The notes: generated by a model from the sequence alone, not told the origin. Numbered from the stretch's first letter, positions 1,670 through 23,968 are shown. The stretch: DNA of 24,000 bases from Thermodesulfitimonas autotrophica (GCF_003815015.1 NZ_RKRE01000001.1:46460-70459), one strand, 5' to 3'. Made by a program: numbers and translations.

Positions 1670-1673
1670 CCCA

Positions 1674-2456: not shown

Positions 2457-2918
2457 TTACGCTTGCGGCTCCTTTCCCGCAGGAAAAAGATGCTTCTTTA
2501 TCCGGCTTACCGCTTCCGGAACGGCCGCTGCCACCTCTGGCGTACACTCCCGGCCAAAAGAGGTTGCGTCCGCAACCTCAACCGTCACAATTTTGATTTC
2601 GCGGGGCATCTCTGGACCGAATAGTTCGTAGCCGATCTTTAAAGTGGTGGGCAAGGAGAGATTGTGGGTGCCGGAGAAGGTGTAGGTATAAAAAAGGTCG
2701 TCCGGGGTGAATTCGCGCACCGTTCCCGGCGCATCCCCCAGCCTGACGCCGTCAACGATGATTGCCCGGTCGTAGCCGAGCAGCTTGTCAAGAACCTTAA
2801 AGTCGGTGGTCATCAAAATCTCGGTGTCCACCACGCCTTCGAAATGACGGGCAACCTTAATCCCGACGGCGTCGTCGGTTAAAACCGGGTTGCCGATACC
2901 GAGCACGATGGTGCGCAA
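2457..2918 (-). CDS. [NiFe]-hydrogenase maturation endopeptidase (HyaD/HycI/FrhD family)
   Basis: N-terminus MRTIVLGIGNPVLTDDAVGIKVA and ...DRAIIVDGV... are typical of hydrogenase C-terminal processing proteases. TTG start with GGGGTGA 7 nt upstream. It lies downstream of the large-subunit gene. Confidence 0.85.
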   Translation of the reverse strand: MRTIVLGIGNPVLTDDAVGIKVARHFEGVVDTEILMTTDFKVLDKLLGYDRAIIVDGVRLGDAPGTVREFTPDDLFYTYTFSGTHNLSLPTTLKIGYELFGPEMPREIKIVTVEVADATSFGRECTPEVAAAVPEAVSRIKKHLFPAGKEPQA

Positions 2919-2934
2919 TCATCTCACCCCTGAG

Positions 2935-2956
2935 GAACGTTTGACGTTAAACGTTC
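2935..2956 (-). repeat. Three tandem heptads with an ACGTT core, also foldable as an 8-bp hairpin, just 5' of the protease RBS
   Basis: Plus strand reads GAACGTT TGACGTT AAACGTT. GAACGTTT (2935-2942) is the reverse complement of AAACGTTC (2949-2956). In the gene sense it reads AACGTTT AACGTCA AACGTTC followed by ctcaGGGGTGAgatgaTTG. Confidence 0.6.
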
Positions 2957-3034
2957 AAAGTTTTAGCAGCCGCTAATCTCGAATCAGCGGGGCGTCTCCG
3001 GCACGAAAGGCATTGCGGGCAGCACCAGAAGCGC

Positions 3035-3108
3035 CCCCGCACTCAGGCGAAATCTACGTGCCCCAAATGGCGGTTAGGTTTCATTAGGCACTCCGCCCGA
3101 GTGCGGGG
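3035..3108 (-). other. Mutually exclusive helices within the mvhA-protease spacer
   Basis: CCCCGCACTC (3035-3044) is the exact reverse complement of GAGTGCGGGG (3099-3108). GCACTC (3088-3093) competes for the same GAGTGC (3099-3104) across a 5-nt loop. Confidence 0.5.
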
Positions 3109-3190
3109 CTACGCTCTTTCCGGCTTCAGCGGGCAACGTTACCATTTTAAACCTGCCGTTAGTATGGGCAAACGTTTACACCGCTGTTTC

Positions 3191-4654
3191 TTAAAAATTC
3201 CGCAAGGTTTTGTAAAGTTCGCCCTTATGGTCGTAAATATCTACCTGAACCGGCAGCCGGCCCGGCAGAACGTGGGTGGCGCAGGCCAGGCAGATATCGT
3301 AGGGTCGGTAGGCGATCTCCACGAGATTCAAAATGCCCTCGTCCACTTTCCCGTTCCGGATAAAGTGGGCGGCGGCGCGTCTAACCGCAACGTTGATGGG
3401 GCCTTTGTTGTGGGTGGTGGCCACAATCAGGTTGGCCTCCTGGACGATGCCCTTATCATCGGTCTTATAGTGGTGGATTAAAGTGCCGCGGCAGGCTTCG
3501 ATGATACCTACGCCTTCGCTTGGCTTGCCGAGCTCGGCCCGGACGTCGGGGCTGGTGATGCTCTCGTCCGCGGCTATTTGTTGCACCTTCTCAGCCGCGT
3601 TGAGCAGCTCGATGGCCCGGGCCCAGTGGTAGGCCAGGATGTTATGCACGGGTTTTACGCCGAAGGTTGCGAACATCCGCTCGTAGGCCTCCTGGGCGAG
3701 CGGCGTATCCATTCCCTCCGCGACGTTAAGCCGCGCGAGCGGCCCGACGCAGTAGAGGCTTGTACCCGGGCCGTCGACGATGCCCTTCCAGCCGATCGGT
3801 TTCAAATACGGCATCTTAAGGTAGCTCCAGGGAAGCACCCTTTCGGCAATGAAGTCGAGGTAACCCTTGCCGGTGAAACGGCCGATCTCCCTGCCTTCGG
3901 TATCGACGATCCGCTGGATACCGTCGTAATACTGAACCCGGTTTTTCTCGTCCACCGTTCCCATATAGTTGACTACAACCTTGTAAACGTCGCCGGTGAC
4001 TAACTTCATGTAGTTTTCGTTTTTGAGCACCACGTCTTCGAAGACCTTGAGGGTGAGCTGGCCCAGTTCAACCATTTCTTTGGCGAGGGCGAGGATCTCT
4101 TTTCGTTCTTCTTCCGTCACCCGCTTCGACCAGCCGCCCGGCAGTGCGGCTACCGGATGGATGGGTTTCCCGGCCAGCATCTCGATTACCTTGACCGCGG
4201 CGTAACGCTTCTTGAGCACCAACTTGCCGGTTTCGGCGCCAACGGCCTGGATAAGACCGATGAGGTTCCGCTCGGCCGGGCTGGCGGTGGGACCGGCCAC
4301 GAAATCCGGGAAACCGAGGGCGTAGAGAATTGCGGCGTGGTCCTCCACGTAGTGGGAATTGAGCACTAACTCCCGGATCTTCCGCGCGGTCGGCGTCGGC
4401 TCTACCTGGTAGACCGCGTCCGCCGCCTTTACCGACGCGGTGAAGTGGACGCAGCGGCAGACGCCGCAGATGGTAGAAACGGTCCGCGGCACCTCTTCGA
4501 TGGGCATGCCGCGGAGGAACTGCTCGTAGCCGCGGAGCTCGACCGTCTGGAAGAAGGCGTTATCTACATTCCCCTGCTCGTCGAGAAAAACGGTAATCTT
4601 GCCGTGGCCTTCGAGCCGGGTCATCGGGTTGATTTCGATCTTCGTGACCGACAT
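3191..4654 (-). CDS. mvhA: Cytoplasmic [NiFe]-hydrogenase large subunit, MvhA/VhuA-like (group 3c type)
   Basis: N-terminal RLEGHGKI and the ICGVCRCVH Ni-ligand CxxC motif. C-terminal DICLACATH motif followed by a 26-aa extension, the expected protease substrate. RBS GGGGTGA upstream. Located in an mvhD-mvhG-mvhA arrangement. Confidence 0.9.
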   Translation of the reverse strand: MSVTKIEINPMTRLEGHGKITVFLDEQGNVDNAFFQTVELRGYEQFLRGMPIEEVPRTVSTICGVCRCVHFTASVKAADAVYQVEPTPTARKIRELVLNSHYVEDHAAILYALGFPDFVAGPTASPAERNLIGLIQAVGAETGKLVLKKRYAAVKVIEMLAGKPIHPVAALPGGWSKRVTEEERKEILALAKEMVELGQLTLKVFEDVVLKNENYMKLVTGDVYKVVVNYMGTVDEKNRVQYYDGIQRIVDTEGREIGRFTGKGYLDFIAERVLPWSYLKMPYLKPIGWKGIVDGPGTSLYCVGPLARLNVAEGMDTPLAQEAYERMFATFGVKPVHNILAYHWARAIELLNAAEKVQQIAADESITSPDVRAELGKPSEGVGIIEACRGTLIHHYKTDDKGIVQEANLIVATTHNKGPINVAVRRAAAHFIRNGKVDEGILNLVEIAYRPYDICLACATHVLPGRLPVQVDIYDHKGELYKTLRNF

Positions 4655-4670
4655 TGGTATTCACCCCTAT

Positions 4671-5636
4671 CTATTTCACTTTTTGGCCCAGCAAGGAGGC
4701 GGGCAAAGAGTAACGGTAAAAAAGCTTGACCGGGCTGGGGATCTGATCAACCAGCGCTTCGTCCGCGAGGAGCCCGGCGATGGCGCTCACGGCCCGCAAA
4801 CCGAAGTCCTTGACGCCGGGGATGGGCCCGCCGCAGCCCCGACACGGAATGTTGACCTTCGGGCACAGCGCACCGCAGTCGCCCTGGGTTACCGGTCCCA
4901 GGCAGAGGTAGCCCTGCTGCAGGAGGCACTTGCCTTCTCCCGGAACGCCGTCGATGGTCCGCTTGATTTCCTTAATCGGCTGCCTTTCTTCGCCTCTGGC
5001 AGCCGGATTGCGGTCGCATACGTCACAGACGGCCTTACCGCTCGTAATCCAAGAGCCGGGCGGTGGCAGCTTGCCTTGAAGAATGGCCAGGATGGCCTGG
5101 CCGACGAAAGAGTGGTGGGGCGGGCAGCCGCCGACAAAGTAATCGACGGGCACGACGTCCTGAAGGGTCCGCACGTGACCGTAGAACTCGGGTAGGGTGA
5201 GTTCGTACTTGCCGTCCACCACGCACCTTGTCTGGGGGGTGATGCCCTCCGGGTTATCGGTGCTGTAAGTGTCGAAGTAGGCGGTCCGGAAGATTTCTTC
5301 TTTCGTGTGCATGTTACCCATGCCCGGGATGCCGCCGAGCGCGGCGCAGGCGCCGTAGGCAACCAGGACCTTGCACTTCTGGCGCATCACTTTGGCGATG
5401 TGCTCCTGCTCGCCGAGGCGGACCATACCGGAGTAAAGCCCGACGTCGATTGATTTGTCCGGCATCGCCTCGAGGTCTTTGTACTTCACGTCGGCAACGG
5501 TGGGAGCCCAGAAGACTACTTCGAGCTGGGGCAGCACGTCTACCAACGTTTCCGACAGGTCTACGATGGCCATATCGCAGCCGCCACACCCGCCGGAGAG
5601 GAAATAGGCTAAGCTAAGCTTACCGGCCATCTCCAT
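4671..5636 (-). CDS. mvhG: [NiFe]-hydrogenase small subunit, MvhG/VhuG-like (no Tat signal)
   Basis: N-terminus ...YFLSGGCGGCDMAIVD is the proximal-cluster motif. Cys-rich C-terminal part (CDVCDRNP..., CLGPVTQGDCGALCP..., CRGCGGP). No twin-arginine leader. Overlaps mvhD by 17 nt. Confidence 0.85.
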   Translation of the reverse strand: MEMAGKLSLAYFLSGGCGGCDMAIVDLSETLVDVLPQLEVVFWAPTVADVKYKDLEAMPDKSIDVGLYSGMVRLGEQEHIAKVMRQKCKVLVAYGACAALGGIPGMGNMHTKEEIFRTAYFDTYSTDNPEGITPQTRCVVDGKYELTLPEFYGHVRTLQDVVPVDYFVGGCPPHHSFVGQAILAILQGKLPPPGSWITSGKAVCDVCDRNPAARGEERQPIKEIKRTIDGVPGEGKCLLQQGYLCLGPVTQGDCGALCPKVNIPCRGCGGPIPGVKDFGLRAVSAIAGLLADEALVDQIPSPVKLFYRYSLPASLLGQKVK

Positions 5637-6051
5637 CCCTCCCGAGGGGATTCGGGCCGAGTTCCCGAATCTTTTTATCGAATTCCGTCATTACTTCGGC
5701 GAAGCGCTTTCCTTCGGAGCCGGAGATCCACTCCAACCGCACCCTTTCGGGTTCAATGCCCATTTCGGTGAGCATCCGTTTGAGGAGGTTGAAGCGACGG
5801 ATGGCCTTGTAATTACCCTCCTTATAATGGCAGTCGCCGAAATGGCAGCCGCCCACAAAGACACCGTCGGCCCCCTTTTTGAGCGCCGTTACGATGAACT
5901 CGGGCTCTATCCGTCCGGAACAAGGGACCCTCACGATCTTGATGGTGGGCGGATAGGAATAGCGCAGGCTGCCTGCGAGGTCCGCCCCCTGGTAGGTACA
6001 CCAGTTGCAGGCAAAGACCACGATGTTGGGCGTCCAATCACCCATCTTCAT
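5620..6051 (-). CDS. mvhD: Methyl-viologen-reducing hydrogenase delta subunit (MvhD/FlpD family, [2Fe-2S] adaptor to HdrA)
   Basis: IVVFACNWCTYQGADLAG...VRVPCSGRIEPEFIVTALKKGADGVFVGGCHFGDCHY is the hallmark MvhD pattern. A 4-nt ATGA-type overlap with hdrB suggests translational coupling. Confidence 0.9.
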   Translation of the reverse strand: MKMGDWTPNIVVFACNWCTYQGADLAGSLRYSYPPTIKIVRVPCSGRIEPEFIVTALKKGADGVFVGGCHFGDCHYKEGNYKAIRRFNLLKRMLTEMGIEPERVRLEWISGSEGKRFAEVMTEFDKKIRELGPNPLGRDGDGR

Positions 6052-6938
6052 CCCTCCAGGATTTTATTTACGACCGACTGCACATTTGTTTTGCCGAGGC
6101 TCGCAACCTGCCCCGGTTCCGCCCCGAGGCAGAGGGCTAAAAGCTGCATGTAGTGTAGAACTGGTATCTCATAGTTAATCTTTCGGTCTTTTTGCAGGAA
6201 CCCTTGAGCCGTATCCAGCTGGATCAGGCAGGAACTACAGGCGGTGACGATCAGGTCCGGGTTGATCTCTTCCTTCATGGAGTTAAGTTTTTTCTCCACC
6301 AGCTTGAATGACTTCTCCATGTCGGTGCTGCGCATCCCGCCCATGCCGCAACAGTCGAGGAGCCGGCTGTAGTACGGCGCTTTGGCTCCGAGGGCTTCAC
6401 AGAGCTCGATTAAGACCTTAGGGTGGAACGTATCCTCTTCTTTGTCCTCGTAAACCTCACTCGGCCAGAGCGCGTGGCATCCCGGCTGGACCGCGATGGT
6501 TATGCCGTCGAGCTTGTGCCGGACGGCTTCCTTAATCTTCTCCGGGCCGAGCTCTTTGTACAGGTAACAGATCGCGTGTCTTATCCGGCTGGTTCCTTTG
6601 AATTCCCTCCCGATGCTTTTGAGCATCGCGTTGACCCGGGCCTTCAGCTCCGGATCGGATAGAAGCTTGTGGCGGCTTTCGGCCAGGCTGCCGTAACAGC
6701 TGCCGCAAACCGTGATCATGTCGAGGTTTTTTTCTTCTGCGAGCGCGTAATTTCTGGCGCCGACGGCGCACCAGCCGGCAAGGTCGATAGAAGGCATCGT
6801 CCCCCAGGTCGGGCAGCAGGACTGCCCTTCAAGGTCGTCGAGCTCCACGCCGAGCGCCGGGAAGGCGTAGCGCACCGCCTTTTCGAGATCGGGCCGGTTA
6901 AAGGCTGTATTGCAGCCGACAAAAAATCCTACACGCAT
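6048..6938 (-). CDS. hdrB: Heterodisulfide reductase subunit B (proximal copy)
   Basis: Two CCG domains (GQSCCPTWG...CGSCYGS; QPGC...DCCGMGGMRS...CSSCLIQ). Lies directly after hdrC in an hdrA-hdrC-hdrB order. Confidence 0.9.
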   Translation of the reverse strand: MRVGFFVGCNTAFNRPDLEKAVRYAFPALGVELDDLEGQSCCPTWGTMPSIDLAGWCAVGARNYALAEEKNLDMITVCGSCYGSLAESRHKLLSDPELKARVNAMLKSIGREFKGTSRIRHAICYLYKELGPEKIKEAVRHKLDGITIAVQPGCHALWPSEVYEDKEEDTFHPKVLIELCEALGAKAPYYSRLLDCCGMGGMRSTDMEKSFKLVEKKLNSMKEEINPDLIVTACSSCLIQLDTAQGFLQKDRKINYEIPVLHYMQLLALCLGAEPGQVASLGKTNVQSVVNKILEG

Positions 6939-6941
6939 AGG

Positions 6942-7517
6942 CTACACCTCGCAACTTTCTTTTACTCCGGACTTGCCCATGGGGATGATGCCCAGGTCAG
7001 ATAGAGCGGTCTGCTCGAGTAACGCCTGTAACTCGCGTAAAGCTGTTGGATGCGCAACCGTTGACGGGGGCTTTTGCGGCAGGCCGACCTTTACCCGGTT
7101 CTCGTGCGCCTGCGCGAGATAGACCGCGTGGCCGACATCGTAAAGCGACTTTATTCCTTCAATGGCCAGGGTGGGGAGGGCGAATTCGCGGACGGCTACG
7201 CGGCGCATGGCCTGCATTACCTCGAAGGGATTTACCTTCCGGGGACAGACCTCGGTACAACGGTTACAGGACTGGCAGGCCCAGATGGAGGTATCGTCGA
7301 GAAGCATCTCCTTCAAACCAAGCAGGATGGCCTGGATCACTCGCTTGTTAAAAAACGGGAAACCGGCAAGGGCCATCGGACAGGCGGCGGCGCACTTGGC
7401 ACATTGGATGCAATCAAGGATATGGGTGGCTCCGAGCGCCTTGATTTCGTCGACGAAGCCTTTTTCGCCTGCGGAAAGATTAATGACTTCCGGTACGGCT
7501 TCCGCAGCGTTAGACAT
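6942..7517 (-). CDS. hdrC: Heterodisulfide reductase subunit C (proximal copy)
   Basis: Two ferredoxin-type motifs CIQCAKCAAACP and CQSCNRCTEVCP. An 8-nt overlap with hdrA. Confidence 0.9.
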   Translation of the reverse strand: MSNAAEAVPEVINLSAGEKGFVDEIKALGATHILDCIQCAKCAAACPMALAGFPFFNKRVIQAILLGLKEMLLDDTSIWACQSCNRCTEVCPRKVNPFEVMQAMRRVAVREFALPTLAIEGIKSLYDVGHAVYLAQAHENRVKVGLPQKPPSTVAHPTALRELQALLEQTALSDLGIIPMGKSGVKESCEV

Positions 7518-9540
7518 TCAGATCACCCCCGCTGAAAGTTAGGGCCTCAATTTGGGCTTCGATCTGCGCCGTGGTGAAACCGTGTAGCGTGATCGCCCGA
7601 GAGGGGCAAGCCGCCGCACAAACGCCGCAGCCGGCGCAGAGGGCTGGGTCAATCTTGGCCCGCAGCTTATCACCGTGTTGCACCATGCCGATGGCCGAAT
7701 AGGGGCAGAGCGGGACGCAGAGACCGCAGCCACTGCACTTTTCGGCGTCGATTTCGGAGATAAGCGGTTCAACAAGCACCTTTCCTGCGGTGAGCGGTAC
7801 CGCGGCCGCCGCGGCTGCCGCGCGCGCCTGCGAGACCGATTCGGGGATGTCTTTAGGGCCCTGCGCGCACCCGGCGATGTAGATGCCCTTTACCGGAGTT
7901 TCCACCGGGTAGAGCTTGGTGTGGACTTCTTTCAAGAAGCCTTCGCTGCCGCAGGTGATTCCGAGCCGGCGGCCAAGTTCCTCAAGCCCCGGCGACGGTT
8001 CGATGGCGGTGGCGAGAACCACCAGGTCCGCCTCGAGTTCTACGGGCGCGGCCATATCGACGTCGTAGGCGCGCACGCGTAATCTGTCACCGGCGAGTTC
8101 GTCCACAGCACCCACGCGGCCCCGCACAATCTTAATCCCCAGGTCACGGCAGTAAGTGTAGTATTCTTCAAAGTCTTTGCCGCCGGTCCGCACGTCGATG
8201 AAGAAGATGTAGACGTTCGTTTCCGGGTATTTCTCTTTGATGAGCCGGGCCTCTTTCAGCATGTACATACAGCAGACCTTAGAGCAGTACGGATGGTGGT
8301 TCTTATCCCGGCTGCCGACGCAGGAGATAAAGGCCACCGTCTTGGGCTTTTTCCCGTCTGAGGGGCGCTTGAATTCGCCTTCGGTTGGTCCGGTCGCCGA
8401 AAGGAGACGCTCGAGTTGCATGGCGGTGAGCACGTTAGGCGACTGGGGGGAGTATTCTTTGAAAGGAGCCTTGTCCATGACTTTGTAGCCGGTGGCGACG
8501 ATGATCGTGCCTACGTTAAGCTCAATGATCTCCCCGTCGGGGTTATATGATAGCGAGCGGTCGCAGGCGCCCGTGGGGCAGGCCTTCTCACACGGTGCGA
8601 GGATGGGCTCTCCGGTCTTAGAATGGATGCGCGGTTGGGTACCGAAGGTCCGCTTCGCGCAGTTGAGGCAGTGGGCGATGTCGACGACCGCCTTCTTGGG
8701 CACCGCCTGCGGGAACTCGATGTAGATCGCCTTCCGGTTGCTCATGCCCTCGTTGAACTCGTCGGGCACTTTGGCCGGGCAGGCTTCGACGCAGGCACCG
8801 CAGCCGGTGCATTTATCCCATTCAATGTAGGTCTGCCTTCTTCTTACCTTAACCCTGAAATTACCGATGGAACCGTCAACCGCTTCGACTTCCGAGTAGG
8901 TGAGCAGCGTGATATTCGGGTGCGTGCCCACCTGAACCATGACGGGGGTAAGGATGCAGGCGGAGCAGTCGTTGGTCGGAAAGGTTTTGTCAAGCTTGGC
9001 CATGTTGCCGCCGATGGAGGGCTTTTTCTCCACGAGGTAAACCTTGTAGCCCATATTGGCCAAGTCAAGGGCGGCAAACATGCCGGCCACTCCCCCGCCG
9101 ACGACGAGAGCCGCCTTCGTCACGTCCACGTAACGGTCGGTGAGCGGCTCCAAAAGGGCGGCCTTCGCTACGGCGCTGGCAATGAGCTTTTTGGCCTTCT
9201 CCGTAGCGCCCTGCTTATCGTGCCAGTGGGCCCAGCTGTCCTGATCCCGGATATTGGCCATTTCGAAGAGGTACCGGTTAAGTCCGGCGTCTTCGACGGC
9301 CTTGCGGAAAATCGGCTCGTGGGTGCGGGGAGTGCAGGCGGCTACCACGACCCGGTCGACAAGGCCGTCTTTGATATCCTGCTTGATTAGGTCCTGACCC
9401 GGGTCGGAGCACATGAAAAGATAGTCGCGCACGAGCGCAACCCCTGGAAGGCCACCGGCATACTTCTTGACTTCGGCGATGTCAACAGCACCGGCGATGT
9501 TTTCGCCGCAGTGGCAGATGTAAACGCCTATTTTCGACAA
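7510..9540 (-). CDS. hdrA: Heterodisulfide reductase subunit A (FAD plus multiple [4Fe-4S]; electron-bifurcating flavoprotein)
   Basis: 676 aa. Dinucleotide fold ALVVGGGVAGMFAALDLANMGYKVYLVEK. Inserted ferredoxin domain CTGCGACVEACP and C-terminal CSGCGLCVPLCP and CAGCGVCAAACP. N-terminal Cys-containing domain (VYICHCG). TTG start with AAGGAGGG 6 nt upstream. Confidence 0.9.
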   Translation of the reverse strand: MSKIGVYICHCGENIAGAVDIAEVKKYAGGLPGVALVRDYLFMCSDPGQDLIKQDIKDGLVDRVVVAACTPRTHEPIFRKAVEDAGLNRYLFEMANIRDQDSWAHWHDKQGATEKAKKLIASAVAKAALLEPLTDRYVDVTKAALVVGGGVAGMFAALDLANMGYKVYLVEKKPSIGGNMAKLDKTFPTNDCSACILTPVMVQVGTHPNITLLTYSEVEAVDGSIGNFRVKVRRRQTYIEWDKCTGCGACVEACPAKVPDEFNEGMSNRKAIYIEFPQAVPKKAVVDIAHCLNCAKRTFGTQPRIHSKTGEPILAPCEKACPTGACDRSLSYNPDGEIIELNVGTIIVATGYKVMDKAPFKEYSPQSPNVLTAMQLERLLSATGPTEGEFKRPSDGKKPKTVAFISCVGSRDKNHHPYCSKVCCMYMLKEARLIKEKYPETNVYIFFIDVRTGGKDFEEYYTYCRDLGIKIVRGRVGAVDELAGDRLRVRAYDVDMAAPVELEADLVVLATAIEPSPGLEELGRRLGITCGSEGFLKEVHTKLYPVETPVKGIYIAGCAQGPKDIPESVSQARAAAAAAAVPLTAGKVLVEPLISEIDAEKCSGCGLCVPLCPYSAIGMVQHGDKLRAKIDPALCAGCGVCAAACPSRAITLHGFTTAQIEAQIEALTFSGGDLNV

Positions 9541-9991
9541 CCCGATCCCTCCTTCGAGTTAACGGTTCTATGCCTCGACTCGTTCTTCCTATCTCCTCTT
9601 GGTGTCCTGAGCGCTATTTACCGATCGAGATAAATGCCCGGACCAGCCCCCTTTCGCCAGTATGTACGCGCAGGACCGCCGCCCTTGTAGAAACGGAGTA
9701 ACGCCGCCTGCGAACCCGGTTGGTAAGGATACGGAAATTCAGGCGGACGCACCTTGCCCCGATTACGTGCGCCTGCGAAAATTTCGACAGCGATCAGACA
9801 AAATCCTTCTTTTTTACTAAAAAAATGACATCCACTCGCGGCAAAAATCCTCTTAGCGAAGGCGCAGGAGGTTACGGCGCCTCTCAGGGCTGCTGCGCGA
9901 GCTCGTTGGTAAAGCGCCCGGCCGGATGCGGCGGCTGCGGGAGGCCGAAACGCTTGCCGAAACGTTTATTGTATACTTGAGCTGCCACTGT

Positions 9992-10020
9992 TTCCAACGC
10001 TCCGCCCTTTGCATTATAAT
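9992..10020 (+). promoter_or_regulatory. Candidate sigma-A-type promoter for the carboxylase operon
   Basis: Perfect TATAAT at 10015-10020. Weak -35 TTCCAA at 9992-9997 with a 17-nt spacer. About 60 nt upstream of the preferred start at 10079. Confidence 0.4.
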
Positions 10021-10078
10021 TATCACCAGGTTTTAAGCGCCCTTTATTTTGCGTTTTTGTTTGGGATGGGGGGATACG

Positions 10079-13303: not shown

Positions 13304-13349
13304 AGGGAAAAATTTAGTATGATAAAAGTAACCTAAGGAGGTGGTCGCT

Positions 13350-13751
13350 TTGACGGCCGTTGAAACTGGCGGGCAGGAGTTACGTAGCGACCTGGGGGCG
13401 GTAAGGATCGCAAACGAAGTGGTAGGTATCATTGCGGGTCTTGCGGCGACGGAGGTTCCGGGGATTGCCGGGATGAGCGGTGGTATCGCGGGCGGCATCG
13501 CGGAGCTCTTGGGGCGCAAGAATCTCGCCAAGGGCGTGAAGGTAGAAGTTGGGGAGCGGGAGGCCGCTATTGACCTTTTCGTGGTCGTCGACTACGGGGT
13601 GCGGATCGCGGAAGTGGCTGCCCAGGTTCAGGCGGCGGTGAAGCGCGCGGTTGAGGAGATGACCGGGCTTGCTGTCGTAGAGGTAAACGTACATGTTCAG
13701 GGCGTGGTTTTCCCCGAGGAGCATAAGGAAGAGGAACGCAGGGTGAGATAA
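13350..13751 (+). CDS. Asp23/Gls24-family envelope stress protein (YqhY-like)
   Basis: GAVRIANEVVGIIAGLAATEVPGIAGM...VEVGEREAAIDLFVVVDYGVRIAEVAAQVQAAVKRAVEEMTGL is the typical Asp23 pattern. AAGGAGGTG overlaps the track start at 13341, so the TTG at 13350 is preferred. Confidence 0.8.
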   Translation: MTAVETGGQELRSDLGAVRIANEVVGIIAGLAATEVPGIAGMSGGIAGGIAELLGRKNLAKGVKVEVGEREAAIDLFVVVDYGVRIAEVAAQVQAAVKRAVEEMTGLAVVEVNVHVQGVVFPEEHKEEERRVR

Positions 13752-13860
13752 AGTAGCAGGAAGTTAGGCCTCAGGGGACAGAGGTGCGGGGTTGGGGGTC
13801 AAGGGCCGGAACTTGGTTGGGGTTTTTCGCTGCGGCACGGTTGTTGTCTTTTATAACGCC

Positions 13861-13890
13861 GAACGTTGAACGTGTTAAACGACGCACGTT
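13861..13890 (+). repeat. ACGTT-repeat leader element upstream of the amaP-like gene
   Basis: GAACGTTGAACGTGTTAAACGACGCACGTT, followed by ttcaGGGAGTGGtatgatTTG. It resembles the element at 2935-2956 when that one is read in its own gene sense. Confidence 0.5.
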
Positions 13891-13908
13891 TTCAGGGAGT
13901 GGTATGAT

Positions 13909-14445
13909 TTGGGACCGTTTGATCGCGGTCTCTTATTGCTTTATAGCTTGGCCACCAGTGTTTTTTGGGGCGCCTTTCTCCTCGCCCTTCTAGGATGGCG
14001 GCCGGTGCTTGACGCCACGGCGGCAGTCTTTGCGCCGGAGCGGCGGGAGATAGTCTTCGCCGGGCTTGCTGTCCTGATCGTTGCGGGGCTCCGGCTGATT
14101 TACGCCAGCGTGAAACCCGGGCGCCGGCACGACAAGGTGGCCCTCATCGAGGAAAACTCCATCGGCCAGGTGCAGGTAGCCTTAGGGGCGATCGAAAACC
14201 TGGTAACGCGTGTGGTGAGTGCTTTTCCGGGAATAAGGGAAGTGCGGCCGCGGGTCGTCACGGTGCCCGAGGGAGTTGTAATCCAAGTCAGGCTGGTTAC
14301 CACCCCGGGGCTTAAAATCCCCGAGGTTTCCCAGGAGATTCAGCGACAGGTCAAGGAGACGGTCCGGGAAGTCACCGGAATTGCGGTGCAGAACGTCCGC
14401 GTTCTCGTCGACAACATCACGGCTGTCAAACCGCGGGTCGAGTAA
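13909..14445 (+). CDS. amaP: Alkaline-shock-response membrane anchor protein AmaP-like
   Basis: Two N-terminal hydrophobic helices followed by an Asp23-like soluble domain (IGQVQVALGAIENLVTRVV...VTGIAVQNVRVLVDNI). Position after asp23 matches the asp23-amaP-DUF2273 module. TTG start with GGAGTGG upstream. Confidence 0.65.
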   Translation: MGPFDRGLLLLYSLATSVFWGAFLLALLGWRPVLDATAAVFAPERREIVFAGLAVLIVAGLRLIYASVKPGRRHDKVALIEENSIGQVQVALGAIENLVTRVVSAFPGIREVRPRVVTVPEGVVIQVRLVTTPGLKIPEVSQEIQRQVKETVREVTGIAVQNVRVLVDNITAVKPRVE

Positions 14446-14461
14446 AAGCGGGGGGTTAAGG

Positions 14462-14671
14462 GTGGACTACCGGGAGTTTTTCGAGCACCACCGGGGAAAA
14501 ATCATCGGCGTGGCCCTGGGCCTCGCTTTTGGCTGGTTTGCGATAGTTTACGGTTTCTGGAAGGCCGTTTTTGTTGCGGTCTGCGTGGGAATCGGCTATT
14601 ACGTGGGCAAGCGGGTCGACGAGCGGATCGATTTTGCTCACGTTTGGGACCGGCTTTTCCGGGAAAAGTAG
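14462..14671 (+). CDS. Small integral membrane protein (DUF2273-like)
   Basis: 69 aa with two hydrophobic segments (IIGVALGLAFGWFAIVYGFWKAVFVAVCVGIGYYVG). GTG start at 14462 preceded by a GGGGGG run. Conserved position between amaP and nusB. Confidence 0.55.
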   Translation: MDYREFFEHHRGKIIGVALGLAFGWFAIVYGFWKAVFVAVCVGIGYYVGKRVDERIDFAHVWDRLFREK

Positions 14672-17335: not shown

Positions 17336-17974
17336 ATGGCGCAGGTTTTCGACTGGAGCATCAGGCAGTTCTTGAAGGAGGCCGCGTCAAGTGCCCCTAC
17401 GCCCGGCGGGGGAAGCGTAGCGGCACTGGCGGGCGCGCTGGCGGCGGCGATGGCCTCCATGGTTGCCAGCCTGACCGTCGGCAAGGATAAGTATAAGGAT
17501 GTGGAGCCGGAGATGCAGGCAATACTGGCCAGAACGGCGGCGTTGATCGAGGAGCTTGAGGCGTTGGTGGCGGCGGATATGGAGGCCTTCAACGCCTTTA
17601 TGGCGGTTTACAAGCTCCCGAAGGAGACGGAGGAGCAGAAGGCGGAGCGGGCGCGGCGGATGCAGGAAGCCCTGCTGCAGGCAACCGATACCCCGCTCAA
17701 GATCGCCAGCAGTTGCCTCGAGGTACTCCGGCTTGCCGAACAGGCGGCGTTGAAAGGGAACAAGGGCGCAGTAAGCGATGCGGGCGTGGCCGCGTACTTG
17801 GGCGAGGCGGCGCTTCAGGCCGCGCTGCTCAACGTTGACATCAATGTACCGCTTATCAAGGACGCGTCATACGCGGCGCAGGCGGTGACGAAGCGGGAGG
17901 AGTTAGGGCGCGAGGCGGTGAAAGCAAAGGAGCGGGCCGTGGCGGTCGTGAAGGAACGGCTTGCGGGCCGGTAA
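17336..17974 (+). CDS. fchA: Cyclodeaminase/cyclohydrolase-family protein (FTCD C-terminal domain; FchA-like methenyl-THF cyclohydrolase)
   Basis: FLKEAASSAPTPGGGSVAALAGALAAAMASMVASLTVGK is the signature N-terminal helix of the cyclodeaminase domain. All-helical and Ala-rich. Adjacent to folD. Confidence 0.75.
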   Translation: MAQVFDWSIRQFLKEAASSAPTPGGGSVAALAGALAAAMASMVASLTVGKDKYKDVEPEMQAILARTAALIEELEALVAADMEAFNAFMAVYKLPKETEEQKAERARRMQEALLQATDTPLKIASSCLEVLRLAEQAALKGNKGAVSDAGVAAYLGEAALQAALLNVDINVPLIKDASYAAQAVTKREELGREAVKAKERAVAVVKERLAGR

Positions 17975-17999
17975 GGTGGAGCCTATCCTGTAGTTAAGA

Positions 18000-18036
18000 C
18001 CCCCGGTTTCCTGCGGTGCGGGAGCGGGGGTTTTTT
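18000..18036 (+). terminator. Rho-independent terminator after fchA
   Basis: CCCCCG (18000-18005) pairs with CGGGGG (18025-18030), with extra inner TCC/GGA pairs, followed by TTTTTT (18031-18036). It begins 26 nt after the fchA stop. Confidence 0.75.
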
Positions 18037-18181
18037 GTGGGGCTTACCTACGGAACCCAGGCTCCCTGATTCGCGGGAAGCGGTGGGGAGGGACGCAGGC
18101 GATGGGAAAAATTTAAGGGGAAACTACCGGCGAAGTTTAAGAGGAAATGGGGCCTGCGTGACGAAGTCTCTATGATAGCCA

Positions 18182-18715
18182 ATGGAGAGAATAAGACCGG
18201 TGCCGGTAAAACCGGTGGTGAGCGTTTTCAGCGCGGATGAAGCGCTGCTAGCGGCGGTGGCCGGCGAGCTCGCCCGGTGGCTGGGCGGGCCCGACTACGA
18301 AAGCCCGTTGCTGTCGTTTGACCAGACCCGCTATTACGAACGGGAAATGGGGCCGGGGCTGAAGCGCAGGTTTTATGCTTTCTCCCGCCTCATCGACGCG
18401 GCAGAGTTGGTGGCGCTCAAACGCTGGGCCATCGAAGCGGAGGCGCGCTGGCGGTACGATGGGAGGCGGCGGGTGAACATTGACCCCGGCTACGTGAGCC
18501 TTGCGAAATTAGTCTTGGCGACCACCAAAGATAACGTACACCGGATTTATTTAGGGGAAGGCATCTACGCCGAGGTAACCCTTTACTTTTGCAAGGGGCG
18601 GTTTCATCCTTGGCCCTGGACCTACCCGGATTATGCCAGCCCGGAGTACCGCGCGATTTTCGAGCATATCCGGGAGCTTTACCGGGAGCAGTTGCGCGCC
18701 GCAAAACAGGGGTAA
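18182..18715 (+). CDS. Conserved protein of unknown function (resembles the DUF4416 family)
   Basis: 177-aa ORF with coding-like composition. Motifs NIDPGYVSLAKLVLATTKDNVHRIYLGEGIYAEVTL and WTYPDY recall DUF4416, from memory and not searched. No clear SD before ATG 18182. TATGAT at 18171-18176 could make the mRNA leaderless; an alternative in-frame GTG lies at 18200. Confidence 0.55.
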   Translation: MERIRPVPVKPVVSVFSADEALLAAVAGELARWLGGPDYESPLLSFDQTRYYEREMGPGLKRRFYAFSRLIDAAELVALKRWAIEAEARWRYDGRRRVNIDPGYVSLAKLVLATTKDNVHRIYLGEGIYAEVTLYFCKGRFHPWPWTYPDYASPEYRAIFEHIRELYREQLRAAKQG

Positions 18716-18779: not shown

Positions 18780-19070
18780 GTGAGCCAGGAAAAAGAGCCT
18801 TCTTTTGAGGCGTGTCTTGGGCGGCTTGAGGCGATTGTCCGGGAGATCGAGGCGGGCAATCTCGACCTTGATACTGCCATTGCCCGGTTTACCGAAGGGA
18901 TGGAACTGGTGAAGCGGTGCCGGGCACTGCTTACCGCGGCGGAACAGAAGATATGCCTGCTCCTCGAGAATGAGGTGCAGGAAGGCGCTGCCGTTCCGGT
19001 AGAGAACCTGGCGAAGGAGCGCACCAATGGACTTCAAAGCGGCCCTATCAGAAAAAGCCCACCTGATTAA
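18780..19070 (+). CDS. xseB: Exodeoxyribonuclease VII small subunit
   Basis: SFEACLGRLEAIVREIEAGNLDLDTAIARFTEGMELVKRCRALLTAAEQKI is the canonical XseB helix-hairpin. GTG start with GAGGGG upstream. The C-terminal tail overlaps ispA by 44 nt. Confidence 0.8.
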   Translation: MSQEKEPSFEACLGRLEAIVREIEAGNLDLDTAIARFTEGMELVKRCRALLTAAEQKICLLLENEVQEGAAVPVENLAKERTNGLQSGPIRKSPPD

Positions 19071-19917
19071 CCAAGCCCTCGATGCCTACCTTCCTCCGGA
19101 GTTGGCACCGCCGGTAGTCATTCACCAGGCGATGCGGTATAGCGTTCTCTCGGGTGGAAAGAGGCTTCGCCCGGCGCTGGTGCTGGGGGCGGCAGAGGCG
19201 GTTGGGGGCAGGGTCGAAGCTGTTCTTCCGGCTGCCTGCGGCATCGAGCTTATCCACTGCTACTCCCTGGTTCACGATGACCTGCCGGCGATGGACGACG
19301 ACGATTTGCGACGCGGGCGTCCCACTACCCACAAGGTCTTCGGCGAGGCGATCGCGATTTTAGCCGGGGATGCTCTCCTGACGCTCGGCTTTGAACTGCT
19401 CGCCCGGGCGGGGCTGGAAACGGATGTGTCGCCTGTAGATGCCCTTAAGGTGGTGCGGGAGGTAGCCGTTGCGGCGGGAACGGAAGGGATGGTAGGCGGG
19501 CAGGTGCTTGATATTAAGTCTCCGGAAGCGGGTGCTCCGGCAGAGCTGGTCAAGGAAATTCACCGCCGAAAAACGGCGGCGCTTTTCGTCGCTTCAGTCC
19601 GTACGGGGGCGATCCTTGCTCGCGCCTCTGAGGAAGCGCTGGCGGCCCTGACGCGCTTCGGCATGAGTTTCGGCCTCGCTTTTCAGATTACGGACGACAT
19701 TTTGGACGTGGTCGGGGAAGAGGCTAGGATGGGGAAGAGGGCCGGAAGCGACGCGCGGCAGAAAAAGCTTACCTATCCGGCGATTTTCGGCCTGGCGGCG
19801 GCGCGGGAGCGGGCCAGGGCGGCAGCCATGGAAGCGGTGGCGGCGGTAGAAGGGTTCGGCAGCGCGGCCGCGTTTTTGCGCGGGGCGGCGGAATTTATCC
19901 TGACGCGCGATTACTGA
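19027..19917 (+). CDS. ispA: Farnesyl/geranylgeranyl diphosphate synthase (polyprenyl synthetase)
   Basis: GGKRLRPALV, first Asp-rich motif LVHDDLPAMDDDDLRRG, second FQITDDILD, and KRAGSDARQKKLTYP. Confidence 0.9.
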   Translation: MDFKAALSEKAHLINQALDAYLPPELAPPVVIHQAMRYSVLSGGKRLRPALVLGAAEAVGGRVEAVLPAACGIELIHCYSLVHDDLPAMDDDDLRRGRPTTHKVFGEAIAILAGDALLTLGFELLARAGLETDVSPVDALKVVREVAVAAGTEGMVGGQVLDIKSPEAGAPAELVKEIHRRKTAALFVASVRTGAILARASEEALAALTRFGMSFGLAFQITDDILDVVGEEARMGKRAGSDARQKKLTYPAIFGLAAARERARAAAMEAVAAVEGFGSAAAFLRGAAEFILTRDY

Positions 19918-19974
19918 CGGCCGATTTTGCGCGCCGCTCATTTACAGGGCGAGCTGGCGGTACCTGGCGGGGGT

Positions 19975-20003
19975 TTGTTTATCCCGGCGGACTATGGTAT
20001 CAT
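19975..20003 (+). promoter_or_regulatory. Sigma-A-type promoter with extended -10, upstream of the large ncRNA
   Basis: TTGTTT (19975-19980), a 17-nt spacer, then TGgTATCAT (TG at 19995-19996, -10 hexamer at 19998-20003). Predicted start near 20010. Confidence 0.55.
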
Positions 20004-20011
20004 AGTTATCA

Positions 20012-20650
20012 AGGAGCGGGTTCCTTTGGGGGACCGCTATTATGCCCTTTGAAAATGAAAATGGGTAAGTGATGCAGTATCCTAGTCAGAACGCCTCCAC
20101 TGAAGGCGGGCCTAAAAATCCGCCAAGGGCACATCGATGAAGTTCCTGGTGCTGGCTGCTGGCGCCCAGCCGGGGGCTGGTACTGGGAGTTAAGGCGGAA
20201 GGGCGACCCGCAAAGGCATGCGGGCGTTGACCCTCCCGCCGCGGAGACCCAAGTGCGTGGGCTGACGCCTATGGCTTGGGATAGAACCTGTACGTGGTGG
20301 AAAGCTGCGTACAGCGTAGCCTGCCTTGAGTGGCCCGGGTGGATGCAAAGAAAAGCGGCCTCCGGGTATGGGCCCATCCCGGAGGTCCGCTAGCTGAAAC
20401 CCTGGCTGCAAAAGAGGCTAGGTGGAGGGCGGTTCTGTCGGGGAAAACCCCTAGGCTGTCCGGATTTCGGGGTGCTCCAGGGATTAAAGTGTATGCTTAG
20501 TGGCAATCCAGCCCCGGTTGCGGTGACGGACCGGGGACGCCCTTAAAGGGAAACCGCTGGCGCGGCGACGGCCAGTGGGCGTCCGGGAAATCCTGCTGGA
20601 CCTAAGCTACAGCGTTTACCTGGGGCGCTATCACTTACCCATTTTGAATT
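20012..20650 (+). ncRNA. ole: OLE (ornate large extremophilic) RNA candidate
   Basis: About 640 nt with no credible ORF. A perfect 16-bp closing helix AAAATGGGTAAGTGAT (20058-20073) pairs with ATCACTTACCCATTTT (20630-20645). Many nested hairpins, e.g. 20288-20294/20308-20314, 20355-20390 (12 bp), 20512-20518/20530-20536, and 20536-20542/20577-20583 enclosing 20557-20561/20571-20575. Location between ispA and a small membrane-protein gene followed by dxs and tlyA matches the published OLE synteny. The ends are approximate. Confidence 0.8.
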
Positions 20651-20677
20651 TACGGCCATTTTCGAGGTGAGAGCCGT

Positions 20678-21295
20678 TTGGGTAATAACCGGCCCCGCGG
20701 CGCTTTTGTGCGCCACCTGCTTTTTGTGCTTGCGGGGACTTTTACCGCTACCGTATCCTGCGCGCTAGTTTCGGAAACCTTTGTGCGCCGGATGGAGGCG
20801 GTTGGGCTTGCGGTTGGCTTTCTTTTTCTGATTATCGCGGTGAATATTATCTTCGATATCGTGGGCACGGCGGCTACGGCGGCTTCGGAGCCAACCTTTA
20901 ACGCGATGGCGGCGCGTAAGGTTTCCGGGGCTTCGGAAGGGCTCTGGCTGGTGCGGCATGCGGATAAGGTCGCCAATTTTGCGAACGATATAATCGGGGA
21001 TGTTGCGGGAACTGTTGCCGGCGCGCTCGGCATTTCGCTTATGACGCAGGTGTTGGTCCGGTGGCCGGAGCTGAACGAACTCTGGTTGAATATCCTGGTC
21101 ACAGCGGCTATCGCTTCCCTGACCGTGGTGGGAAAGGCTGCGGGCAAGCGGTTGGCGGTGAGCGAGCCGGACCAGGTTATTTTTTTGGCGGGGCGGATAA
21201 TGGCAGCCTGGGGGCGGATGAGGCCCCCATTTTGGCGCAAAAAGAGGGCGCTTAACAGGAAGGGGCGACAGTTTGAGCGTTCTCGAGCAGGTTAA
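20678..21295 (+). CDS. oapA: Small polytopic membrane protein, OLE-associated protein A candidate
   Basis: 205 aa with about four hydrophobic helices ([75 protein letters not shown]). TTG start with GAGGTGA 7 nt upstream. Immediately 3' of the ncRNA and overlapping dxs by 23 nt. Confidence 0.7.
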
Positions 21296-23165
21296 CGCGC
21301 CGGAGGATCTGCGCCGGCTTAAAATAGAAGAGCTGAGTCAGCTGGCGGCCGAGCTCCGGGAGTTGATCATCGAAACGGTGGCTCAGACGGGCGGACACTT
21401 AGCGCCGAATCTCGGGGTGGTAGAGCTTACTATCGCGCTGCACCGGGTCTTCCAGGCGCCCCGGGATAAGATCGTTTGGGATGTTGGGCACCAGTGTTAC
21501 GCCCACAAGATCCTCACGGGCCGGCGGGAGCGCTTTGGCACGCTACGGCAGTTCGGCGGGATAAGCGGCTTCCCCTGCCGGGACGAGAGCGTTTATGACG
21601 CCTTTGGCGCCGGCCACGCCAGCACCTCCATTTCGGCGGCACTGGGCTTAGCGAAAGCCAGGGACTTTAACCAGGAGGATTACGCGGTGGTGGCGGTAAT
21701 TGGTGACGGGGCGCTAACAGGGGGTATGGCGCTGGAAGCGCTCAACCACGCGGGCCACATCAAGGCCAACTTCATCGTGGTCCTCAACGATAACGAGATG
21801 TCGATTTCGAAAAACGTTGGAGCCCTGGCCGGCTACCTCACCCGCCTCCGGACGGACCCTATGTACCACCGGTCCCGGGAGGAGTTTGAAGCCTTAATTC
21901 AAAAAATACCAGCAATCGGGCCGCGGATGCTCCGCGTGCTGGAACGCCTGAAGGACAGCGTGAAGTATCTGGTGGTTCCAGGGATGTTTTTTGAAGAGCT
22001 CGGTTATACCTACTTAGGACCTGTTGACGGCCACAGTATCCCGGCGCTGCTGCGGACCCTGGAAAAGGCAAAGGGCCTCAAGGGGCCGGTGCTGGTCCAC
22101 GTCGTCACGCGAAAGGGGAAGGGCTACCCGCCGGCGGAGAAGGACCCGGACACCTTTCACGGCGTTGGCCCCTTCAACCCGCTGACGGGTGAGGTCTATG
22201 GGGCGGGAAAGATAACCTATACGGAGGTCTTCGGCCAGACACTCGTCCGCCTCGCGGAAGAAGACCCCCGTATTGTCGCTATTACCGCGGCAATGACCAC
22301 CGGCACAGGACTCAAGACCTTCGCGCGGCGCTTTCCCCAGCGTTTCTTCGACGTCGGGATCGCGGAACAGCACGCCGTGACGTTGGCGGCCGGGCTCGCG
22401 GCCGGCGGCTGGCGGCCGGTGGTGGCCATCTATTCGACCTTTTTGCAGCGGGCCTACGACCAGATCGTGCACGACGTCTGCTTGCAGCGTTTGCCGGTCG
22501 TTTTTGCCCTTGACCGTGCCGGCATCGTGGGCGAGGACGGCGCGACGCACCAGGGGCTATTCGATATCGCCTACCTGCGCTCGATCCCCAATATGGCGCT
22601 GATGGCGCCGATGGACGAGAACGAACTGCAACACATGTTAAAGACGGCCTTGCTTTACGGCGGTCCCTGCGCGATCCGGTACCCGCGGGGCAGGGGAACG
22701 GGGTGCGCTTTAGAAAAGGAGCTGCGCCCGCTTCCCTTCGGCCAGGCGCTGGTCCTCCGGGACGGCAGAGACGTGAGCCTCTTCGCGCTCGGCAACACGG
22801 TCGCCGCGGCCCTTGAGGCGGCGGAGCGGCTGGCCACGCAGGGGATCGAGGCGGCGGTGGTCAACGCCCGTTTTGTAAAGCCTCTCGACGCTTCCCTCCT
22901 CCTGCGCTTTGCCCGGCGGACGCGACGGGTGGTGACAGTGGAGGAAGGCATCCTGGCGGGCGGTTTCGGTAGCGCGGTAGCTGAGCTCCTGATGGATAAC
23001 GGGCTCGGCAATGTGGAGCTCGTGCGGTTAGGGATCAACGATACCTTTGTCCCGCACGGCGCCCCGGCCCTCCTCCGGGAAAGGTACGGGCTTACGGCTG
23101 AGAACATCGTTGCCGCGGTTACCCAGTCACGGCGGCGGTTGCGGGTTGCCGCCAGGAAGAAGTGA
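21273..23165 (+). CDS. dxs: 1-deoxy-D-xylulose-5-phosphate synthase
   Basis: [34 protein letters not shown], the ThDP motif [16 protein letters not shown]...[10 protein letters not shown], and the transketolase-like C-terminus. TTG start with GGAAGGGG upstream. Confidence 0.95.
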
Positions 23166-23968
23166 TGTCCGTCCGGCGGCGGTTGGACGTGGCCCTGGTG
23201 GAGAAAGGGTTTTTTGTTAGCCGCGAGCAGGCACGTCAGGCTATACTTGCCGGCTTAGTGTTCGTGAACGGCCTCTGCGTGCAGAAGCCGGGCCGTTTCG
23301 TTTCCGCCGCGGATAGAATGGAGGTGCGCGGGGAGGCGCTTCCCTACGTCTCCCGCGGGGGGCTGAAACTCGCGCACGCGCTACGTTTTTTTGGGGTTAA
23401 CCTCCGCGGGCTGGTGGTCATCGACGTGGGGGCATCAACAGGTGGTTTTACCGACTGCGCCCTTCAATTTGGAGCGCGGCGGGTTTTCGCGGTGGATGTC
23501 GGTTACGGGCAACTGGCCTGGAAATTGCGAACCGACCCGCGGGTCACCGTTCTCGAGCGGACCAACATCCGCCACCTTGCTCCCGAAGCGATTGACGAGC
23601 TTGCGGACTTCGCCACCGTCGATGTCAGTTTTATCTCGCTTGAAAAGGTTCTGCCTTGCGTAGGGGCACTACTAAAGCCGGAGGGGCAGGGCATTGCGCT
23701 GGTTAAGCCCCAGTTTGAAGCCGGGCGGGGCAAGGTGGGCAAAAAGGGTGTGGTGCGCGATCCGGCCACGCACGTGGCCGTCTGCGCGAAGATTATCGCC
23801 TTTATCGGCTCGCTCGGCTGGGAGGTGCGGGGCCTGACTTACTCGCCGCTACGCGGGCCGGAAGGCAACATCGAGTTTCTTGTCTACTTCAGTAAGGTTA
23901 CAGGGTGTCCGTGGGACGGCAAGGTGGAAGAGGTGGTGACGGCGGCCTGGCGCCACTTTAAAAGTTAA
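23162..23968 (+). CDS. tlyA: TlyA-family rRNA (cytidine-2'-O)-methyltransferase (S4 domain plus FtsJ-like MTase)
   Basis: [33 protein letters not shown] is the S4 domain, [13 protein letters not shown]...[33 protein letters not shown] is the SAM-binding part, and it ends with [13 protein letters not shown] 4-nt overlap with the dxs stop. Confidence 0.9.

Follow-up and report, generated by a model that had tools for sequence, protein, structure and literature searches.

The ole locus and its RNA

The DNA analyzed here is a 24,000-nucleotide (nt) stretch from Thermodesulfitimonas autotrophica (GCF_003815015.1, NZ_RKRE01000001.1:46460-70459), called the window below, and the element in question is the gene for an OLE RNA (ole) between ispA and dxs. 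The gene order nusB-xseA-folD-fchA-DUF4416-xseB-ispA-ole-oapA-dxs-tlyA is the classic OLE cluster, and it contains all of the neighborhood (xseA, folD, xseB and ispA-[ole]-oapA-dxs-tlyA) that a first-pass annotation, made by a model from the sequence alone, had predicted. The farnesyl diphosphate synthase gene ispA occupies 19027-19917 (+; Pfam polyprenyl_synt, NCBIfam FPPsyn, 351.9 bits) and is followed by ole at 20053-20650 (+), oapA at 20678-21295 (+), dxs at 21273-23165 (+; TIGR00204, 887 bits) and tlyA at 23162-23968 (+; TIGR00478 tly, 258 bits). The last three genes overlap one another, oapA and dxs by 23 nt. We are close to certain that the region 20053-20650 (+) encodes a canonical full-length OLE RNA and that it represents the ole gene of its host, a spore-forming anaerobe from the Thermodesulfitimonas/Ammonifex lineage (Bacillota).

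The OLE class (Rfam RF01071; Puerta-Fernandez et al. 2006), whose consensus is given in Fernando & Breaker 2024 (PMC11332333), has been cataloged in 2,822 Bacillota representatives (PMC11332333). In a scan with Rfam 15, RF01071 matched 20053-20650 (+) and scored 523.6 bits, more than ten times its gathering score of 50 (E = 3.9e-151). The alignment covered model positions 1-616 of 616 without truncation, over a segment of 598 nt. OLE was the single Rfam family above its gathering score in the whole 24-kb window; neither further RNA families at gathering score nor tRNAs were found there. The annotation's central proposal, an OLE-class RNA on the plus strand, is therefore borne out by an end-to-end covariance-model match and by the expected gene neighborhood. 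The RNA is also far more stably folded than its composition predicts, with a folding energy of -309.9 kcal/mol as compared with -249 +/- 7 kcal/mol in 100 dinucleotide shuffles (z = -8.6).

For comparison, at least 120 OLE loci from reference genomes were found by a motif of invariant P4/P4a bases, and 104 full-length copies were extracted and aligned with the window ole (105 sequences). OLE RNAs are near-invariant at about 25% of their nucleotides, and of the 200 columns that are at least 95% conserved among the 104 homologues, the window RNA keeps 199. The sole departure is a G to A change at 20493, whose helix partner has changed from C to U, so that the pair is compensated. The highest identity of the window ole to any sampled homologue was about 71%. 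Its GC content of 0.60 ranked 9th among the 105 sequences, the family median being 0.48; since the whole window also has a GC content of about 0.60, the composition of the RNA merely tracks that of the genome. In the annotation's phrase "GC-rich thermophile", the first half reflects a GC value equal to that of the local genome, and the second can be drawn only from the nearest named relatives of the host (Thermodesulfitimonas sp., with 87% OapA identity, and Ammonifex, with 56%).

Closer relatives were fetched via OapA. The nearest OapA proteins came from a Logan contig (98% identity), Thermodesulfitimonas sp. (87%), contigs of metagenome-assembled genomes (MAGs) in ENA (81%) and Ammonifex degensii/thiophilus (56%); the named organisms among them are all Bacillota. 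The relatives fetched in this way all carry OLE in the same place, with scores of 452-509 bits. The OLE of the relatives L123/L124 is 92.7% identical to that of the window. The nearest named complete genome, Ammonifex degensii KC4 (CP001785, L125), carries a full-length OLE of 452 bits with 80.7% identity to the window RNA. As a separate observation, one motif match lay outside Bacillota, on a 2.3-kb contig labeled as a Fibrobacter sp. MAG (L067, JAAZFC010000135.1). Rare matches of this kind have been ascribed to binning errors or horizontal transfer (Fernando & Breaker 2024, PMC11332333), and the shortness of the contig makes mis-binning likely.

Coding potential of the interval

The annotation had described the interval between ispA and dxs as free of credible plus-strand open reading frames (ORFs). 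This holds within 20012-20650, where the plus strand has ORFs of 46 and 56 amino acids (aa) and the minus strand has ORFs of 122, 73 and 57 aa, all short or spurious; it does not hold for the ispA-dxs interval as a whole, which contains the 205-aa plus-strand oapA. The presence of ORFs of 46-122 aa on both strands might nevertheless suggest that the interval is protein-coding, either through the antisense ORF of 122 aa (20009-20377) or through the two ORFs of 46 and 56 aa on the plus strand, and that its RNA structure is incidental. The 122-aa ORF, however, had no Pfam match, and GC content hardly varies with codon phase in OLE (0.59/0.59/0.63), unlike that in the flanking genes oapA (0.61/0.49/0.66) and ispA (0.72/0.48/0.70). 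Among close relatives with 81-97% identity the longest open stretch changes both strand and frame, and frame-shifting insertions and deletions are tolerated in ole. Across the family the length of the open stretch follows GC content (r = 0.59), and substitutions in the helices are compensatory. A protein-coding reading of the interval is effectively refuted by these data.

Long-range helices

The annotation had also drawn attention to a perfect 16-base-pair (bp) helix enclosing the structured region. Positions 20058-20073 (+; AAAATGGGTAAGTGAT) are indeed the exact reverse complement of 20630-20645 (+; ATCACTTACCCATTTT) and form 16 perfect Watson-Crick pairs with them; in a repeat search the pairing stretched to 22 nt at 91% (20052-20073 with 20630-20651). 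The helix is real and covaries, as described below, but it is not new. It corresponds to P1 of the published consensus, in which P1 and P2 belong to domain 2 and P3 closes domain 1 (PMC12265935), and what is unusual here is its length. The structure line of RF01071 leaves the 5' 53 and the 3' 20 model positions unpaired and omits P1, P2 and P3, and this omission probably made the helix seem novel to the annotation. Other users who rely on that line may likewise mistake P1 for a new helix.

To compare P1 among OLE RNAs, its length was measured by anchoring on the conserved GCAGUAU. In 103 homologues the number of contiguous base pairs had a median of 9 and a maximum of 15, with a median of 5 in the shuffled-strand control. 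The 16 bp of the window RNA are the longest among the matches listed (104 including the window). Column-wise analysis across the family gave 82-99% canonical pairing, with exchanges between GC and AU and between UA and CG, for the seven innermost pairs (20067-20073 with 20630-20636), whereas the outer nine pairs are near chance. In the window RNA, a conserved P1 has therefore been lengthened in a lineage-specific way. The helix has 15 bp in L123 and 11 bp in Ammonifex, where two T-A pairs have been replaced by C-G in a compensatory manner. An earlier measure, in which 80-nt termini were folded as duplexes without an anchor and compared with shuffles, gave an uninformative median z of -1.3 because the A/U-rich flanks pair promiscuously; it was replaced by the anchored P1 length and covariation. 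We also considered a CCATTTT direct repeat (20639-20645 and 20656-20662; I10) as a source of an alternative P1 partner, as its second copy could pair with 20057-20064 and replace the outer part of P1. The repeat is not conserved in L123 and is probably due to chance, and the candidate was dropped.

Both P2 and P3 could be placed as well. The 5' strand of P2 (20074-20085, +; GCAG-UAU-CCUAG, with a CUAG palindrome) pairs with 20451-20459 in the minimum free energy (MFE) fold. All nine pairs are canonical in all 105 sequences, and the pair 20081-20455 covaries (UA in 75, CG in 28 and UG in 2). An OapA site has been placed "in or near P2" (PMC12265935). The 5' strand of P3/P3.1 (20087-20101, +) forms 15 bp with 20421-20437, with two single-G bulges. 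The cells of P3 are 85% canonical as compared with at most 56% in slid controls, and the helix shows strong covariation. The MFE fold of the window ole recovers P1, P2 and P3, and each of the three covaries in the aligned homologues. P3 has been proposed as a membrane-spanning helix (PMC12265935), and we considered whether it might be elongated in the host of the window. This idea was rejected, as 15 bp is near the family median of 14.

Hairpins and contact loops

The nested GC-rich hairpins that the annotation named inside P1 are all present, as inverted repeats (I3, I17 and I19) or as helices of the covariance model. CTGTACG/CGTACAG and CCCCGGT/ACCGGGG are paired as helices in the RF01071 alignment, CCTCCGGG/CCCGGAGG is a perfect inverted repeat (I19) and so is GGACGCCC/GGGCGTCC (I17). 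More generally, all local helices of OLE, those of domain 1 (P4-P9) and of domain 2 (P10-P15), are paired in the Rfam alignment, on which the assignments below are based, and P1 through P15 can be formed.

Several of these hairpins carry the sites at which OLE RNAs contact themselves or their partner proteins (PMC7936274, PMC9723947, PMC12286853, PMC12265935). The P4 hairpin (20105-20124, +) has the A-rich loop CCUAAAAA, the commonest form in the family (73 of 104), which corresponds to the L4 dimer bridge described in PMC12265935 and PMC12286853. The adjacent P4a/J4a-5 segment (20125-20142, +; AAGGGCACAUCGAUGAAG, with an AUCGAU palindrome) equals the family consensus minus one A. Published work assigns to this segment an OapA site and a share in the kink-turn (k-turn) bound by OapC (PMC12265935, PMC9723947), and the joining regions that form the k-turn match the consensus in the alignment. 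Next come P5/P5.1, with the loop GCCCA at 20164-20168, and P6/P6.1, with a loop containing GGC near 20214-20216 (together 20143-20240, +). The L5.1 context CGCCCAG occurs in 96 of 104 homologues, GGCAU of L6.1 is conserved, and the two loops are complementary in the window RNA. By analogy with characterized OLE RNAs they would act as kissing-loop partners and as k-turn flanks.

The P9 arm (20322-20418, +; inverted repeats I3 and I19) is long and ends in the self-complementary tip GGGCCC at 20370-20375. While 89 of 104 homologues share GGCC, just 9 of them have the 6-nt GGGCCC; the longer form recurs in L122, L123 and Ammonifex. By the same analogy the L9 tip may serve as a kissing-loop dimer bridge. 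The sequences of the dimerization contacts, L4 CCUAAAAA, L5.1/L6.1 GCCCA/GGC and L9 GGGCCC, are thus present, and the loops that mediate RNA dimerization are kept at the sequence level. In the P12.2-P15 junction (20505-20605, +), which includes P13 and P14.1 with a GCGA loop, P13 is formed by CCCCGGU...ACCGGGG with a GUGA tetraloop at 20523-20526 and a single unpaired stem base. The GNRA loop of P13 is kept in 103 of 104 homologues. The junction corresponds to the region bound by OapB, which recognizes the GNRA-capped P13 and whose binding requirements have been described (PMC7936274).

The P7 and P8 hairpins (20247-20315, +) mark the full-length type; in the reduced variants 1 and 2, which occur in some clades, P7, P8, the long P9 and the P13 OapB site are missing or diminished (PMC11332333). 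The existence of such variants, together with the deletion of one A in the AAAGGG segment of the window RNA, could be taken to mean that the sequence is a decayed or reduced relic, either similar to variant 1 or variant 2 or a pseudogene, and non-functional. Against this, the model is covered from 1 to 616, all but one of the conserved columns are intact, P7, P8, the long P9 and the P13 OapB site align without large deletions, as in the full-length type, and an intact oapA follows. The AAGGG form, one base shorter, is moreover common to all three close relatives (L122 and L123/L124), and Ammonifex has a G at this place. We consider the chance that the window ole is a relic to be negligible.

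Promoter and leader

Upstream of the RNA lies a candidate ole promoter (19975-20003, +), which consists of the -35-like TTGTTT at 19975-19980, a 17-nt spacer and a TRTG-type extended -10 element, TATGgTATCAT, at 19993-20003. The sequence is as the annotation had given it (TTGTTT, 17 nt, TGgTATCAT), and the -10 element gained comparative support. An extended -10 (TGnTAnnnT, at least 5/6 matches to TATAAT) within 150 nt 5' of OLE was found in 102 of 117 loci as compared with 6 of 117 shuffles, and about 80% of these elements have the TRTG form. The block CGGGGGTTT(G/A)TTT...TATGGTAT(C/G)AT is kept in L123/L124 while the flanks diverge, and the extended -10 in Ammonifex is TGTGGTATGAT. A strict sigma-70 scan of 19700-21400 reported no promoter, and the ole promoter was omitted because its -35 element matches at only 3/6 positions; given this weak -35 and a -10 of the extended type, the result was not read as absence of a promoter. 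With the comparative support we find the promoter assignment plausible; transcription is predicted to start near 20010.

The distance from the -10 element to GCAGUAU is 70 nt in the window, 83 nt in L123 and 45 nt in Ammonifex, and the family median is 21.5 nt. Among the matches listed, the window leader is about 50 nt longer than usual. Between the putative start and P1 it holds a clade-specific hairpin (20015-20038, +) that folds in the window and in L123, although with different stems (GGUUCC..GGGGACC in the window and GCCUUCUCC..GGGAGGC in L123); it was not found in the fold of the Ammonifex leader. In H. halodurans, ole is part of a large operon, is also served by a promoter of its own and yields an RNA that is processed to about 630 nt (PMC9723947).

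The partner gene oapA

The 205-aa ORF at 20678-21295 (+), 28 nt 3' of OLE, is OapA, the OLE-associated membrane protein. It is preceded by the Shine-Dalgarno sequence GAGGTGA (20664-20670, +), 7 nt 5' of the TTG start codon; this site is conserved in the relatives (GGGGTGA in L123, GGAGG in Ammonifex). The assignment draws on synteny, a DxxxD motif, hydropathy and a basic tail. At 90 of the 92 other loci compared, the ORF that directly follows OLE is homologous to oapA (E <= 3.4e-23). Across 93 post-OLE ORFs, D104, G107 and D108 are conserved at 99%, 100% and 98%, respectively. From the DxxxD spacing, D104 and D108 of the window protein probably correspond to D100 and D104 of the H. halodurans protein, which was outside the alignment; the latter two residues, located in a transmembrane segment, are those altered by mutation in strain PM1 (PMC9723947). 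Hydrophobic segments at about 13-33, 35-70, 105-127 and 133-155 suggest about four transmembrane segments, as judged by crude hydropathy, which is not a topology predictor. The last 40 aa contain 12 Lys or Arg residues and one Asp or Glu, and this tail would lie on the cytoplasmic side by analogy. The window protein thus resembles OapA of H. halodurans, a small protein of about four transmembrane segments encoded right after ole, with a DxxxD pair and a basic tail. As a side observation, the start of oapA is ambiguous between the TTG at 20678 and a GTG located 30 nt downstream, which is often picked in relatives (196-aa products).

OapA is distantly related to the MpfA/CNNM transporters (PMC11332333). 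The window protein showed a weak similarity to Pfam CNNM (E = 8.2e-4; 19.5 bits, under the 28.4 cut-off), the sole domain trace in its 205 aa, and its homologues carry a precomputed PF01595 match. This likens it to the MpfA/CNNM (DUF21) family of Mg2+ transporters, but unlike MpfA-type proteins, and as in all OapA, it lacks the CBS and CorC domains. In a search of 5.8 billion proteins the homologues were labeled hypothetical, CNNM/DUF21 or CorB and never OapA. Given these labels, the gene downstream of ole deserves annotation as oapA.

No terminator was found between ole and oapA. The lack of a terminator, the 28-nt gap and the shared strand indicate that ole is probably within the oapA-dxs-tlyA transcript. 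The same facts favor a different role for the RNA, namely that of a cis-acting structured 5' leader that controls oapA-dxs-tlyA in the manner of a riboswitch, rather than a stand-alone ribonucleoprotein (RNP) RNA. In H. halodurans, however, OLE accumulates separately as a very abundant RNA of ~630 nt and forms a membrane RNP with OapA, OapB and OapC (PMC9723947, PMC12265935). In the window, P1 closes a discrete domain that ends 32 nt before the start codon of oapA and leaves the Shine-Dalgarno sequence outside. A mainly cis-acting role is hence improbable, though less so than decay or protein coding, and some contribution in cis may exist.

Probable function of the RNA and possible meaning of its clade-specific features

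In its essential features the window RNA is like the full-length OLE class, with an end-to-end model match, the near-complete set of conserved positions, P1-P15, the dimerization loops, OapB and OapC sites, oapA downstream, an isoprenoid/folate/exonuclease VII neighborhood and a Bacillota anaerobe as host, in keeping with the anaerobic or extremophilic Bacillota that typically carry OLE. Among the checks run, no evidence contradicting the OLE assignment was found. Certain limits apply to the full reading given at the outset. We infer promoter use, and likewise the ends and processing of the ole transcript in the window organism. No oapB (ybzG) or oapC (ybxF) gene is present in the 24-kb window, which limits what can be said of the RNP, although in H. 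halodurans these genes lie elsewhere in the genome (PMC9723947). The rankings of P1 length and leader length hold among the matches listed, not for the whole OLE family. Finally, the host is probably thermophilic, a trait taken solely from its nearest named relatives.

Known OLE biology (PMC12265935, PMC9723947, PMC7936274, PMC11332333, PMC12286853), which comes from H. halodurans and Clostridium and not from the window organism, suggests how the RNA may work. Its own extended -10 promoter would start transcription near 20010, read-through from ispA would probably supply further transcripts, and the RNA would be trimmed to about 600 nt. It would then dimerize, and OapA dimers would bind it and keep it at the membrane or within it; OapB and OapC would join the RNP as further partners. 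Under stresses that include cold, short-chain alcohols, an excess of Mg2+ or a poor carbon source, the resulting RNP may help the cell to cope, possibly through modulation of a CNNM-like divalent-cation transport activity of OapA.

The window RNA is unlike typical OLE RNAs in degree only, namely in its P1 of 16 perfect bp, the long distance between the -10 element and the RNA with the leader hairpin, the L9 palindrome GGGCCC instead of GGCC, and the high GC content. At the level of the clade, the peculiarities are the 16-bp P1, the leader that is longer by about 50 nt and contains a hairpin, and the 6-nt L9 palindrome. The locus of Ammonifex degensii KC4 shares the order ispA-ole-oapA-dxs-tlyA, the extended -10 and the GGGCCC tip with the window. 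It is unlike the window in its 11-bp P1, its 45-nt leader without a hairpin, a P7 that is longer by about 15 nt and an OapA with only 56% identity.

The most likely reading of the clade-specific features is that they make the helices more stable in a host that is GC-rich and probably thermophilic. A more far-reaching proposal, which we put forward tentatively and hold to be rather doubtful, is that the long P1, GGGCCC, the high GC content and the leader hairpin are adaptations that rigidify the termini and the dimer at high temperature, that this orthologue is a better substrate for cryo-electron microscopy (cryo-EM) of domain 2, and that the leader hairpin is possibly a 5' processing or stability element. 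If this were true, the window ole could surpass the mesophilic Clostridium RNAs as a cryo-EM sample for the still-unmodeled domain 2 (P1, P2 and P10-P15), with its relatives of 93% and 81% identity as a source of covariation, and the structurally conserved leader hairpin could serve 5' processing or the stability of ole transcripts, as an element not described before.

OLE is among the largest bacterial non-coding RNAs without an assigned biochemical activity. For this class a curated Rfam model already exists, several thousand members have been cataloged, three protein partners are validated and cryo-EM has yielded partial structures; a single further orthologue does not make the question of its activity testable. 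The window ole is an ordinary orthologue in a well-known family, its new content is limited to clade-level detail, and its value lies chiefly in correct annotation. It is nonetheless a sensible choice for structural studies of domain 2, being GC-rich, having an unusually long P1 and coming from a host that is probably thermophilic.

Neighboring genes and the host

The gene models around ole call for a few remarks. The longest-ORF models of xseB (end at 19070) and ispA (start at 19027) overlap by 44 nt, and one of the two boundaries, probably that of the ispA start, may lie too far upstream. Between folD and xseB lie fchA, for methenyl-tetrahydrofolate cyclohydrolase, and a DUF4416 gene (17336-18715). 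The latter had no NCBIfam match and is preceded by a 208-nt untranslated gap (17975-18181). The order fchA-DUF4416-xseB-ispA-ole is kept in the 81% relative L123 (positions 1-949 of L123). Before nusB there are an Asp23-family gene (yqhY-like), a second Asp23/DUF6286-like gene and a gene for a DUF2273 small membrane protein (13341-14671). The yqhY gene is among those most often clustered with ole and has been linked to cell-envelope stress (PMC12265935).

Upstream in the window are also spoIIIAH and genes for two pyruvate carboxylase subunits. The presence of spoIIIAH, the Mvh/Hdr genes described below and the OapA relatives suggest that the host is an anaerobic spore-former of the Bacillota. 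Between the divergent hdrA-like and pyruvate carboxylase subunit B genes is a 508-nt intergenic region (9541-10048), in which no Rfam family reached its gathering score. The hdrA-like gene belongs to a redox cluster on the minus strand (782-9540). This cluster has pairs of HdrC-like (4Fe-4S) and HdrB-like (CCG domain) genes at 782-2291 and 6048-7517, and it further encodes MvhD, the small and large subunits of a NiFe hydrogenase, a 676-aa HdrA-like flavoprotein and a HycI-type maturation protease. Such a set of genes would fit a flavin-based electron-bifurcating Mvh/Hdr complex of a strict anaerobe.

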